A stretch of 64,000 nucleotides of DNA, taken from positions 3,286 to 67,285 of the forward strand of contig JAJXZD010000174.1 in the NCBI GenBank assembly GCA_021780215.1. The letters are read 5' to 3'. Shown piece after piece: positions 6,732 through 9,919 of this stretch; position 1 is the stretch's first letter, and each line of letters opens with the position of its first letter. The position numbers were made by a program, and so were the translations under genes. Under the pieces are notes generated by a model. The model was not told where the DNA came from. It saw only the letters and a list, made by a program, of their open reading frames with translations, and ran no database searches. The stretch comes from Acidobacteriota bacterium (lineage in GTDB: Bacteria; Acidobacteriota; Terriglobia; Acidiferrales; UBA7541).

Positions 6732-8996
6732 CTAGCTGTCGGCGGGGAAAAGCAAGGTTTGCCGGGGCGCGTCAGCCGGATGGATTCTCATGCACGGCGC
6801 GCGAGGCGTGATCCGGGAAAGTTCGCGGGAGCCGCACTCCAGCGACTGAAAAGCTTCCAGCAGCAGATCGCTGTATTTCTGGCGATCGTAGCTATGCCAC
6901 CCCTCCCATAGCGCGTAAGCCCGCACACGATCATTCGGAACGCTGGCGCCGGCCTGGGTGATGATGTACTCGACCGTCTGTCCCGGGCGGAGCCGGACGC
7001 CGCTGCCATAGAGCTGTTGCGCCGCGATGGCGGTGAGGGCGGCTTTCTGATACTCGCGCGGCGGGCGGGTCAGGCGCTTGCGGATGATCAAGTCCTCGAT
7101 GGCGACGTTTCCTTCGCGGAGGCATTCCAGATAGCGGGCCAGGACTGCGCGGGCCATCTCCAGTTTCCGCGCGTAGCTTTCCCCGTCGTGTGCGCCGGAG
7201 AGAATGGCCAGCGCTTCGTTTTGCATCCGGGCCACCAACGGCGGCGTGTCGTGGCGGCGCAATTCCAGCCCGCGGACTTTCATCGCGCCATCCTCGCCGG
7301 CGCAAAAAAAACGGTTCGGCACCGGCACATCGTCGAATTGCCGCGAAGGAAGAAACACGACGTAGCGATAGAGCGCTTCGAGTGCGATGGGCAGTTGCGT
7401 GGATGCGGTGATCTCCGCGGCGAGCGCTTCATAGTCGGCGCGGGTCGCGCCCGCCTTCCGCACATAGAGGGAGTCCACCAGGGCGTGCAGGATCTCATAG
7501 CCCTGGGCTTCGGCCTGTTCCTTGGCGGAAAGCAGCGTTTCGCGGGCGATGGCGTTGATGGCCTCGTGAGCCTCGATCTTTCCAAAGCGCGCGTTTTTGT
7601 ATCCGGTATAGCCGAAGCAGCAGACCAGGAGCCATTTGAGCGCGTCGCGCTGCAGGGTGTGCCGCTGCGCCAGTTTGGGAGAAGCGCTGCGCTGGCGGCG
7701 TTTCAGCTCGATCCGCTTGGCGATCAGCCGCTCCACCACGCGGCTAGTGATGCCGCGCCTCTTCTGGCAGACGCGGTAGCCCAGCTCCGGAACGCGGGGC
7801 GCATCGGGACAGCAGGGGCAATTCACGGTTTCCGGTGAGATGTTGAAGCGCGCCATGATGAACGGATACTCGCTGATGAAGTCCAGCTCGGCGACATTGT
7901 CGAAAAAGCCGAGCCGGGGCGTGAACACCAGGCCGCCGCGGTCCGCGCAGAGAAGTTCATCCGGTGATTTCAGATCTTCCGGCTCGGCCTTTTGCGCCGG
8001 GATGAGCACGCCATCGCGCCAGGCGAGCTCCATCTGCATATAGGAGATGCCGGTTCCCGTGGTGGTCCTGGCCGCGTATTGCACCGGAAGCTTGGTGACG
8101 CGGGCAAGCTCCCAAAGCCCTGCCAGCTCGCATTTATCGGCGATGAACGAATTGGCGCTGTCCACGTGCAAGCGGCCAAAAAGCGTGGTGGCGGAGCCTT
8201 TGAACAAAATGCGCCCGTAGCTCATGAAACTCCGCGCGCGGCTGCGCTGCACCGCCAAGTCGTCGCGGTTCAGACGGAGCGGGATGCGCCGTCTATCGGC
8301 CTGCTGGAGCAGAAGCGGCAGGATGGTGGAGTCGCCCCAGGCGGTGAGGAGCAGGTCGGGATCATAGCGTTTTATCAGTCGGGCAAACGCATCGGCGGCG
8401 GGCACGTCGGCGTCGTCCAGGACGTGTACTTCGCCTTCCGCTTCCACCTCCAAGGCGCCGCGCGGGCCGTGTTCGGGATTGACGCGCGTGCGTCCCGCGA
8501 TGCGCGCCTGCAGGATGCGCAGCGGCGGCAGCTCATAATCGAGCGCCCAGGGATCATCCCTGCAGGCCAGCGCCACAACGCGACGATCTTCCGTGGCCTC
8601 CGCCTCGACGCGCGCCAGGGGGAAGACGCCCTTTTCCCAGCAGTAGAGTGTTGCCAGCAGCAGGTCGGAGTTATACAGGCGGGCTTCCGGATTCATACGC
8701 TGCGCGGCGCGCACAGCGGCTGGAAAGCAGAGCGGCTCGTGAACGGCCACCTCGAGAACTGGCAGCGGTTTTGCCTGCCAGAGATCCCTGCGCTCCGTCA
8801 GGCGGCAATTGGCGCGGAATTGTGAGCCAATCTGATGCGCGAGGCGCCGCATGGCGGCTTCCTCCGCGTGGGCATAGAAAGCGGGACGAAATGAAGCATC
8901 CACCAGCTTGTGCGTGCTTTGGTCGGGCGCGAGCAGCCAGAGCGCCATACCCCGCGGACAGGGATAACAATCCAGGATCCATCCGTCAATCCGCAC
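6732..8996 (-). CDS. Divergent family-B DNA polymerase (PolB) with a C-terminal clamp-binding-like motif
   Basis: 754 aa. Motif A is [20 protein letters not shown] (compare DxxSLYPS..NxSPDT). Motif B is [13 protein letters not shown] (compare KxxxNSxYG). Motif C is HALVDSLYV (compare YxDTDS). RGLELRRHD matches RGxExxRRD. The C-terminus reads QTLLFPADS. The gene overlaps the upstream gene by 11 nt. Confidence 0.9.
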   Translation of the reverse strand: [754 protein letters not shown]

Positions 8997-9252
8997 TGGA
9001 ATTGCCCTCGCCGCGCAGCAGCCTTTCGATCATGGCCAGGCGCTTTTCCTGATCGAGCGCAATCGCGAGCAGGGTCGCCTCCATTGGATTATCGCTGCAC
9101 TGATAAGTTGCCGCCTGGGTATAGCTGCGAACACGCAGAAAAAGGCGGTCGAAATATTCCTGGTCTTCCCGCCGCAGCGCGCGGCGAAACTTCGCCCAGT
9201 GCTGCGCGGTTTCCTCGACGAGCTGGCAAAACGTGGGAAGCGTGCGGCCCAT
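8986..9252 (-). CDS. 88-aa predicted helical protein of unknown family, middle gene of the PolB operon
   Basis: Begins MGRTLPTFCQLVEETAQHWAKFRRALRREDQEYFDRLF. Its ATG (9252-9250) lies one nucleotide after the TGA of the upstream reading frame (TGAcATG). Its 3' end overlaps the PolB start. In the ORF track it is hidden inside the 289-aa ORF 8986-9855. Confidence 0.6.
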   Translation of the reverse strand: MGRTLPTFCQLVEETAQHWAKFRRALRREDQEYFDRLFLRVRSYTQAATYQCSDNPMEATLLAIALDQEKRLAMIERLLRGEGNSSAD

Positions 9253-9253
9253 G

Positions 9254-9855
9254 TCAGCTCCCCGCGGGAAGCGCCGCGCGCAGGGCGCCCCGGGCATCGG
9301 TGAGGGACAGTGTGCCGTCCTCGCGCTCGGCGAGCTTCCACACCTGCGCGGCGCGCGCGGCGACTTGCTGAAATAATTTCCGCCGTGGCGTGGCGAACGA
9401 GAAGGGATCGGAAAAGACGGCGACGGGCCGGCACGCAGCCCGCGCTGGAAGGATGACAAAGCGTCCGCCTCCCGCACGTCTTCATCGAAGTAGAGCTCCG
9501 GCATGGCGGTGAGAATCACCGCGTCCGCGGGGAAGCTCTGCAGCAGGCGCGGCGCGCGTACGAGGAGTTCGGTCAGTTGGAAGCAGGTGAAGGCGCGGGC
9601 CACGCGGATGCGACGGTTCCATTCCGCCGGAGAATCACCGCGCCGCCGGGCAAGGCGGGCCAGCAGCAGCGGGTCGAAACGGTTCGCCCCGTCCAGATAG
9701 AGCGCCCGCTGGCCTGCCTGGAGGGCGCGGGGCAGGACGTAATGCGACAGGCGCAAGACCTGCGGGCCGCCATAAAAAACGGCCAGGCCGCGCGCGGGAA
9801 GCGTCCACAGCTTGGCTTGCCAATGCGACAGGGCTGGCGCGGTGGGGAAGGACAT
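9254..9855 (-). CDS. RecA/RadA-fold protein with degenerate Walker A and B (ImuA-like by analogy); the reading frame is interrupted by an apparent single-base frameshift near 9420-9445
   Basis: The N-terminal frame reads LAVFYGGPQVLRLSH..ALYLDGANRFDP..RIRVARAFTCFQLTELL..AVILTAMPELYFDEDVREADALSSFQRGLRA. This is the RecA-core strand order without GK[ST] and without a Walker-B acidic residue. After about 9430 this frame becomes P/S/R-rich junk. The -1 frame reads CRPVAVFSDPFSFATPRRKLFQQVAARAAQVWKLAEREDGTLSLTDARGALRAALPAGS and stops at 9256-9254. The total span is 602 nt, which is 3n+2. Confidence 0.6.
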
Positions 9856-9890
9856 GGTTCCAGGCTCCCTCTGTGGGATTCTTCGGGAGC

Positions 9891-9919
9891 ATTATAGGCG
9901 AATAAAAAGCGAAATACAA
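9891..9919 (-). promoter_or_regulatory. Near-consensus sigma70-type promoter for the RecA-like/88-aa/PolB operon
   Basis: The minus strand reads TTGTAT-17 nt-TATAAT. The -35 element is at 9919-9914 and the -10 element at 9896-9891. It lies in an AT-rich patch about 35 nt upstream of the ATG at 9855. A GGGAG Shine-Dalgarno sequence lies about 8 nt before that ATG. Confidence 0.5.

Follow-up and report, generated by a model that had tools for sequence, protein, structure and literature searches.

The association of a PolB2-group family-B DNA polymerase with an inactivated RadA and with proteins of arCOG07300, first pointed out by Makarova and Koonin (2013/2014), has been described for archaea and for 'several bacterial genomes', where lexA is in some cases part of the operon (Makarova et al. 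2014, PMC4104785). The two partners were later named iRadA and PPB2 by Timinskas et al. (2025, PMC11791011), who found only the order iRadA-PPB2-PolB2 in bacteria and modelled a complex of the composition PolB2:iRadA:PPB2(3), for which they also described an MGRT arm and a Rad51-like interface between PolB2 and iRadA. According to that paper and to published abstracts, Dpo2 of Sulfolobus can be induced by damage, is needed for targeted mutagenesis and serves as an extender from mismatches and lesions. In a survey from 2026, the bacterial group is named G2 and kept apart from a Pol-epsilon-N-like group that retains both active sites (PMC12926913). Here we describe a minus-strand locus in a 64-kb stretch of contig JAJXZD010000174.1 from an Acidobacteriota bacterium (the window). 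With a probability that we put at roughly 0.8, this locus is an acidobacterial (Candidatus Acidiferrales-like) iRadA-PPB2-PolB2 'PolB2 mutasome' operon in which iRadA has been broken by a deletion. An earlier interpretation of the same DNA, made from the letters alone and without database searches (the sequence-only reading), had taken the trio to be new; since exactly this trio was described in 2014 and modelled in 2025 with members from Terriglobia, the novelty is removed and the annotation is kept. What the present locus adds to the known system is modest, namely a LexA-type operator and a lineage-specific 22-bp deletion that gives rise to a spurious fusion open reading frame (ORF).

Operon layout and the iRadA frameshift

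The ORF listing of the window shows a minus-strand trio of iRadA (gene 1), PPB2 and PolB2, with the polymerase most downstream. The polymerase ORF (6732..8996, minus strand), with a GTG start at 8996, encodes a PolB2-group family-B enzyme of 754 amino acids (aa) with a decayed exonuclease domain; its altered palm motifs had been recognised beforehand. The PPB2 ORF (8986..9252, minus strand, ATG at 9252) encodes 88 aa with the N-terminal arm MGRTLPTF and, as had likewise been read from the sequence, overlaps the polymerase start by 11 nucleotides (nt). We compared this arrangement with a set of 84 related genomic loci, the counts of upstream genes being limited to loci with enough upstream DNA. 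The suggestion that the three genes might recur outside this genome was borne out, as nearly all of these loci have iRadA and PPB2 directly 5' of the polymerase and in the same orientation, a co-occurrence that exceeds chance by far. In the closest genomic relative (L001), the polymerase of which is 78% identical, the gene order is DUF72, a 207-aa protein, a 117-aa DUF8156 protein and the polymerase. DUF72 often adjoins the operon in the related loci, and the 64-kb window has no DUF72. Homologues of the polymerase number more than 2,600 at E ≤ 1e-10, and the best of them all come from Acidobacteriota metagenome-assembled genomes (MAGs). A Terriglobia protein is listed as PolB2 in the supplement of PMC11791011, where its operon is placed in group '1a (iRadA-PPB2-PolB2)' and DUF72 is given as a neighbour, and its catalytic-motif string is almost identical to that of the window polymerase.

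The 5' part of iRadA (9437..9855, minus strand) comprises codons 1-139 plus 2 nt and contains the two degenerate motifs that had drawn attention to this gene, GGPQVLRL at the P-loop and VILTAM in the Walker-B strand. The family consensus is without GK[ST] and has an invariant Thr (T116) at the position of the Walker-B Asp. Gene 1 gives a weak Rad51 match in Pfam, and its 5' part shares 76% identity with the first 142 residues of the iRadA of L001, which is intact and has 207 aa. When the reading frame is repaired, the window iRadA is 93% identical to P0121, the intact 207-aa product of contig L087 (NCBI GCA_009712145.1), which is 95% identical to the window at the nucleotide level. The AlphaFold2 (AF2) model of P0121 (predicted template-modelling score 0.81) has RadA, Rad51 or Dmc1 ATPase cores as all of its 50 best PDB matches (E about 1e-10, template-modelling score about 0.65), and no ImuA model matched gene 1 in the Pfam and NCBIfam scans. 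Sequence and model together thus mark gene 1 as a RadA/Rad51 core that is ATPase-dead and lacks the N-terminal domain, like the published iRadA. Of the earlier proposal of an ATPase-dead RecA resembling ImuA, the loss of the catalytic residues (no GK[ST], Thr for Asp) stands, but the predicted fold is that of RadA/Rad51 and not that of RecA or ImuA.

Gene 1 had been taken for one intact ORF, which it is not. Three-frame translation showed that, after the N-terminus with GGPQVLRL and VILTAM, its own frame continues into a stretch rich in R, P and S that is unlike protein sequence, and that the frame from the ATG at 9855 remains open through this stretch without a stop into PPB2. The outcome is a chimeric ORF of 289 aa (8986..9855, minus strand), composed of the N-terminal part of iRadA, 59 out-of-frame codons and the in-frame PPB2. 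A plausible C-terminus (..RPVAVFSDPFSF..LPAGS*; ..RPVAVFSDPFSFATPRRKLFQQVAARAAQVWKLAEREDGTLSL..LPAGS*) sits in a different frame that ends in the TGA of a TGAcATG string. This 3' part of iRadA (9254..9433, minus strand; ..RPVAVFSDPFSFATPRRKLFQQV..LPAGS, stop TGA at 9254-9256) is out of frame with the start. Thus, the TGAcATG junction that had been reported between the first two genes does exist as a string at 9250-9256, but its TGA is out of frame with the start of gene 1 owing to a 22-nt deletion. Indeed, the 207-aa protein of L001 matches the window in two frames in a tblastn search (residues 1-142 and 147-207), and a DNA alignment with seven relatives (L005-L034) places a 22-nt gap in the window at about 9436/9437. 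At the deletion junction (9430..9437, minus strand) the segment gcgcgccttgcagcagcttgcc is missing, the imperfect repeat GCGYGCC flanks the site, and the frameshift falls in codon 140. The intact gene of L087 has gcgcgccttgcagcagcttgcc bounded by GCGCGCC and GCGTGCC, and a loss of 22 nt from such a context would be typical of slippage or of a microhomology deletion.

The iRadA matches run in a single frame in all of the 84 loci that have one except L023, which indicates that the deletion is peculiar to the window's lineage. The match in L023 (5192-5678) extends over two frames; this locus belongs to MAG MFD02248.bin.1.112, which also has an unsplit copy (L010), and the split could reflect a sequencing indel or another broken copy. 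When mapped on the AF2 model of P0121, the deletion of the window removes the end of helix 129-149 and shifts strands 152-155, 178-184 and 190-194 into another frame. Because this helix is cut and three strands are shifted, the window cannot encode a complete RadA-like fold. Rescue by programmed ribosomal frameshifting was considered and rejected, as the junction has no slippery heptamer, the relatives are single-frame and the deletion measures 22 nt. The 3' part differs from that of L087 by one non-synonymous and three synonymous differences, which are too few to date the frameshift by this comparison. The window PolB deviates from conserved columns at 13 positions (family median 7.5, range 0-33) and PPB2 at 2 (family median 1), and judged by these values PolB2 and PPB2 are not visibly decaying.

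It is conceivable, though unlikely, that the operon is intact in the living organism and that the 22-nt deletion in iRadA is an artefact of MAG assembly or consensus calling. This would fit with the source being a metagenome-assembled contig of 69,364 nt, with the short GC-rich repeats that flank the deletion, with the split iRadA match in L023 as another MAG locus, and with the out-of-frame 3' part being almost identical in protein to that of L087. However, the exact allele was found in at least two other ENA assemblies: the same deletion is present in contig L086 (ERZ27236897), where 588/588 nt are identical to the window, and L208 (ERZ27236874) encodes the identical 289-aa ORF. By our own reasoning, a loss of 22 nt is also atypical of a short-read consensus error at k=141. 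The deletion is probably real, and in all likelihood the locus represents a system without iRadA that has recently been crippled.

The 289-aa ORF could also be regarded as a functional iRadA-PPB2 fusion that tethers a shortened RadA-like module to PPB2. Fusions of this type with an internal Shine-Dalgarno sequence have been reported in bacterial PolB2 operons (PMC11791011); moreover, the frame in the window has no stop over the 59 codons and leads into PPB2 in register, a GGGGAG Shine-Dalgarno sequence of its own is retained by PPB2, and PolB2 and PPB2 are not decayed. Nevertheless, the linker of such a fusion would be the former C-terminus read out of frame and rich in R, P and S, and the AF2 model indicates that the RadA fold would lack two helices and three beta-strands of its core. 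In addition, the window's own product is the only one among the best 120 iRadA homologues that has a PPB2 domain, and the two genes are separate in the 95%-identical relative. A functional fusion is thus quite improbable. Taking together a natural iRadA-null PolB2 system, in which PolB2 and PPB2 would have been kept intact, conserved and under SOS control after the loss of iRadA and would work as a polymerase-PPB2 core, and a working fusion of the iRadA N-terminal half with PPB2, we see a small chance that one of the two exists here, and if so, the locus would provide a ready-made genetic dissection of the predicted mutasome. The source record presents the chimera as a protein (P0122) with the Pfam domain DUF8156. 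'iRadA-PPB2 fusion' calls in MAGs can therefore be frameshift chimeras, and they require checking before they can serve to support a physical interaction.

Many relatives (L012, L013, L015, L022, L029, L030, L035, L051, L064, L066 and others) have a gap of 200-600 nt between the iRadA match and PPB2. The iRadA homologues in these loci are longer (230-293 aa) and look as if they had C-terminal extensions or inserted sequence.

The polymerase and PPB2

The polymerase matches PF00136 in Pfam at 1.4e-23 and NF004416 in NCBIfam at 3e-114, the latter being below that model's cutoff. Its best PDB matches are archaeal PolB enzymes of Thermococcales (8.6e-44), which cover only residues 296-710. The catalytic motifs were assigned with a profile of 25 homologues aligned to the Deep Vent and KOD polymerases, plus a pairwise alignment to archaeal PolB2, and the archaeal PolB2 and PPB2 sequences used for comparison were taken from the supplement of PMC11791011. 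In this alignment the Exo I motif FDIET corresponds to QARIAG (D to R165, E to A167), the catalytic Asp of Exo II corresponds to I225, and the Exo III region is deleted, with about 55 aa missing relative to the archaeal polymerases. The alignment of this N-terminal exonuclease region is of low confidence, and no candidate register brings the motifs back. The strings 'LDYELPP' and 'ALACRDD' were tried as remnants of Exo I and rejected because neither offers a DxE in a register backed by the archaeal PolB2 alignment.

In the palm, the Asp of motif A is retained (D372), while motif C (7473..7481, minus strand) reads L506-V-D508 (HALVDSLYV) in place of DxD. This LVD aligns to DTD of Deep Vent and KOD and to IID of S. 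islandicus PolB2, and both L506 and D508 are invariant in the 25 homologues. The PolB2-specific D(K/R) motif is found at 7938..7943 (minus strand) as D352-R353 ('ADRGG'), aligned to 253-DK-254 of S. islandicus. It is preceded by V330-D346, a stretch that is invariant among the homologues and appears to correspond to the predicted iRadA-binding beta-alpha motif of PMC11791011. Identity amounts to 32% over 407 aa with the Euryarchaeota PolB2 MBN29951, the N-terminal domain included, and to 36% over 221 aa (palm and fingers) with S. islandicus PolB2. On these grounds the polymerase is assigned to the exonuclease-dead PolB2 (G2) group, with a putative archaeal origin. The deposited product (P0001) has 738 aa and begins at Met17. 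The N-terminal string 'IDGWILD', which aligns to 'IEGWLLD' of archaeal PolB2, lies upstream of Met17, and for this reason the GTG at 8996 is the likelier start.

The sequence-only reading had suggested that the polymerase may belong to the bacterial Pol-epsilon-N-like group and had seen the locus as a candidate for an undescribed PolB-based mutasome. We consider this highly improbable. The enzyme, a bacterial PolB, does differ from E. coli Pol II (3k57 matches at E = 1e-11, compared with 8.6e-44 for archaeal PolB) and it has a clamp-like C-terminal peptide, but the Pol-epsilon-N-like group keeps its exonuclease and polymerase active sites (PMC12926913), whereas both are altered here, the exonuclease motifs and DxD being absent. 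Moreover, there is no Pol epsilon chain among the polymerase's 55 PDB matches, and the trio is already present in PMC4104785 and PMC11791011, including a near-identical PolB2 motif stretch from Terriglobia.

The clamp-like peptide that had been pointed out at the C-terminus was found as QTLLF (6747..6761, minus strand; residues 746-750), and it fits the beta-clamp consensus Qxx[LM]F. It is, however, not conserved: a clamp-like tail motif occurs in 1 of the 120 polymerase homologues listed, and that one is the deposited product of the window's own gene. The tails of iRadA show Qxx[LM]F in 2 of the 119 homologues listed, and the window iRadA tail has no comparable motif. Clamp motifs are reported to be present in only a fraction of PolB2 systems, on either PolB2 or iRadA, a pattern termed 'shuttling' (PMC11791011). 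Accordingly lineage-specific in appearance, QTLLF may be functional or may have arisen by chance.

Scans of the 88-aa protein against Pfam, NCBIfam and PADLOC gave nothing useful, the copy of Pfam that was scanned being without DUF8156; the PADLOC matches to Cas11e (0.008) and PD-T4-1 (0.028) were rejected as noise. Pfam DUF8156 (PF26485) is annotated on all 120 PPB2 homologues listed, among which M1, G2, R3 and T4 are invariant. The AF2 model (mean confidence, pLDDT, 79) consists of three helices, in line with the short helical protein that had been anticipated, to which a family, PPB2/DUF8156, can now be given. PPB2 of S. islandicus likewise has 88 aa and has MGRT.P and YTQ(A/S)A(T/S)Y in common with the window protein. 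Judged by these features, the 88-aa protein is a PPB2. Its own Shine-Dalgarno sequence, GGGGAG, lies 7-12 nt upstream of the ATG.

PPB2 is about 117 aa long in most relatives (for example L001 5745-6098), where roughly the final 29 codons run across the polymerase start, an overlap of about 98 nt. The window's lineage, to which P0242 and P0243 also belong, has a TGA at 8986-8988 that stops the protein at 88 aa, the length found in Sulfolobus. The extension of the relatives may not be needed, or it may have arisen as a by-product of the frame overlap.

Promoter, predicted operator and neighbouring genes

A strong promoter had been proposed upstream of the trio. The -10 hexamer (9891..9896, minus strand) is a perfect TATAAT and lies 17 nt from TTGTAT (9914..9919, minus strand), which bears out that part of the proposal. 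The -35 hexamer is weak, and because it matches the consensus at only 3/6 positions, a generic sigma-70 promoter scan reports no promoter here. Relatives have TTGACT or TTGACA at -35 and TATACT or TATTAT at -10. The 17-nt spacer is filled by a LexA-box-like operator (9897..9913, minus strand), TTCGCTTTTTATTCGCC, which has the direct-repeat core (N)TTC-N7-(N)TTC and is the sole copy in the 64-kb window. Within the 130 nt upstream of iRadA, which otherwise cannot be aligned among the relatives, the common element is TTGAC(A/T)-TTCGCTTTTT(A/G/C)TTCGCC-TA(T/C)A(C/A)T, and the 17-nt spacer is near-invariant upstream of iRadA in about 70 of the 84 related loci.

When metagenome contigs were scanned for exact matches to TTCGCTTTTTNTTCGCCTA, at least 120 loci (L088-L207) were obtained, 115 of which have enough downstream sequence. 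Among these 115 listed loci, the genes downstream of the operator encode DinB-family proteins (15), iRadA (14), Y-family polymerases (12), LexA (6) and uracil-DNA glycosylases (3). Representative targets were confirmed with Pfam as LexA (PF01726 and PF00717), Y-family polymerase (PF00817), DinB (PF05163) and uracil-DNA glycosylase (PF03167). Since the element precedes lexA itself as well as genes for translesion polymerases, it is probably the local LexA box. Its core also matches the geometry of the alphaproteobacterial LexA box GTTC-N7-GTTC, a type of box that the title of Mazon et al. (2006) ties to Acidobacterium. Together, these observations strongly suggest that the operon is under SOS (LexA) control.

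Several further features of the putative regulon were seen. The Y-family polymerase has a long N-terminal extension, the DinB-family protein, which is the most frequent target, has 177 aa, and the uracil-DNA glycosylase is family-4-like. Six relatives (L014, L024, L027, L028, L041 and L056) carry a second, inverted copy of the promoter and operator, back to back with the first and about 20-70 nt upstream of the iRadA promoter. This inverted copy has no obvious downstream gene in L014, L024, L027 and L028, and in L056 it faces genes for a 279-aa protein and an SPL-like radical SAM enzyme (PF20903).

Immediately 5' of the operon promoter there is a very basic ORF of 53 aa (9968-10129, minus strand; MSRRKKPVLKVPKEARRRARLG...KPPKHKKPLL), the 3' end of which is conserved in the 95%-identical contig L087. 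Farther out lie a 1154-aa TonB-dependent receptor (10250-13714, minus strand) with a carboxypeptidase-regulatory-like N-terminus, of a type common in Acidobacteriota, a 493-aa secreted protein that by eye is a peptidase (4697-6178, plus strand), and a protein that by eye is RidA/YjgF-like (6093-6662, plus strand). None of these flanking genes is damage-related. The idea that the operon is the polymerase module of a mobile element, phage or defence island is scarcely tenable: family-B polymerases are common in casposons and phages (PMC4104785) and there are weak PADLOC matches (an intein-containing 'HEase' model, and Cas11e at E = 0.008), but the PADLOC match is confined to the shared polymerase domain, housekeeping genes (TonB-dependent receptor, peptidase, RidA-like protein) surround the operon, which is chromosomal and in many Acidobacteriota syntenic with DUF72, and its operator is common to lexA and polY genes.

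Proposed mode of action and relation to known systems

The operon is thought to have been acquired by bacteria from archaea. Published work on the family suggests that LexA would repress it until DNA damage occurs, and that its products, encoded in the bacterial gene order by three translationally coupled genes, would assemble as PolB2:iRadA:PPB2(3). In this complex, PolB2 would hold iRadA via a motif resembling the Rad51 oligomerisation motif, one PPB2 arm would be inserted near the active site, and the enzyme would extend primers past lesions in an error-prone manner, as does Sulfolobus Dpo2. The logic that the sequence-only reading had attributed to the trio, a dead RecA-superfamily protein plus an adaptor plus a specialised polymerase, is the same as in the model of PMC11791011, to which a LexA-type operator can now be added. 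In the present genome, iRadA is frameshifted after residue 139 and the locus would yield no intact iRadA, while PPB2, with its own Shine-Dalgarno sequence and ATG, and PolB2 appear intact.

Several points weigh against this interpretation or parts of it. The three assemblies that share the deletion have consecutive-looking accessions and may represent one study and one population, and it is possible that a second, intact iRadA exists elsewhere in the genome, our search having covered the 64-kb window only. Complex formation and translesion activity of the bacterial proteins are extrapolated from AlphaFold models and from Sulfolobus, and within the searchable literature we came across no experimental work on any bacterial PolB2 operon. 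The sigma-factor-like fold that has been reported for PPB2 was not recovered by Foldseek. With respect to regulation, the case for LexA binding comes from the composition of the regulon; a tblastn search with an approximate E. coli LexA query gave no match to a lexA gene in the window or the 84 loci, and about 65 of the 115 listed metagenomic copies of the operator precede unclassified genes.

Compared with the published PolB2 mutasome operons, the locus has the same three components in the bacterial order, an exonuclease-dead polymerase with an LVD motif C and D(K/R)GG, an 88-aa three-helix PPB2 with the MGRT arm, and a RadA core without the N-terminal domain and the Walker residues; the frequent DUF72 neighbour in relatives is a further similarity, and a link with the damage response would be another. 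It differs in that its iRadA is frameshifted by the 22-bp deletion, so that the gene for the third subunit is not intact, and in that neither lexA nor DUF72 is adjacent, a LexA-type operator being present in the promoter instead. Moreover, position 9 of its PPB2 is Cys and not Arg, and its clamp-like motif, carried by PolB2, lacks conservation within the clade. Dpo2 of S. islandicus, the archaeal PolB2 that is reported to be a translesion 'extender', shares the D(K/R) and xxD substitutions and both partner genes. In contrast to the window, the archaeal genes are arranged as PPB2-PolB2-iRadA, the reduction of the exonuclease domain goes much further, regulation is by Orc1-2/Cdc6 and not by LexA, and the clamp partner would be PCNA in place of the beta clamp.

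By analogy, the predicted complex may be likened to E. coli Pol V (UmuD'2C-RecA-ATP), an SOS-controlled multi-subunit translesion polymerase that has a RecA/Rad51-family partner bound through a mimic of the filament interface and a small subunit with its N-terminal arm inserted near the active site. However, Pol V's catalytic subunit belongs to the Y family, its RecA is active and borrowed from the cell, and UmuD' is unrelated to PPB2. The ImuA-ImuB-DnaE2 system is similar in being LexA-regulated, as the window operon probably is, and in combining an (often) ATPase-dead RecA-superfamily protein with a dedicated error-prone polymerase, whereas the window operon contains neither a Y-family ImuB nor a C-family DnaE2, and its dead ATPase is RadA/Rad51-like by fold. 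The Pol-epsilon-N-like PolB group and E. coli Pol II have the family-B fold and a bacterial host in common with the window polymerase. Both keep the proofreading and DxD sites, which the window polymerase, being closer to archaeal PolB, has lost. Furthermore, Pol II acts as a single subunit, and the window polymerase matches Pol II models and structures weakly.

The operator and frameshift findings leave the picture of the system unchanged. As the bacterial PolB2 mutasome has so far been purely computational, a well-annotated instance helps experimenters to pick targets. The predicted LexA-type operator TTGAC-N-TTCGCTTTTTRTTCGCC-TATACT would tie the acidobacterial PolB2 operons directly to the SOS regulon, and it would outline such a regulon in uncultured Terriglobia, comprising lexA and the genes for a Y-family polymerase, a DinB-family protein, uracil-DNA glycosylase and an SPL-like radical SAM enzyme.

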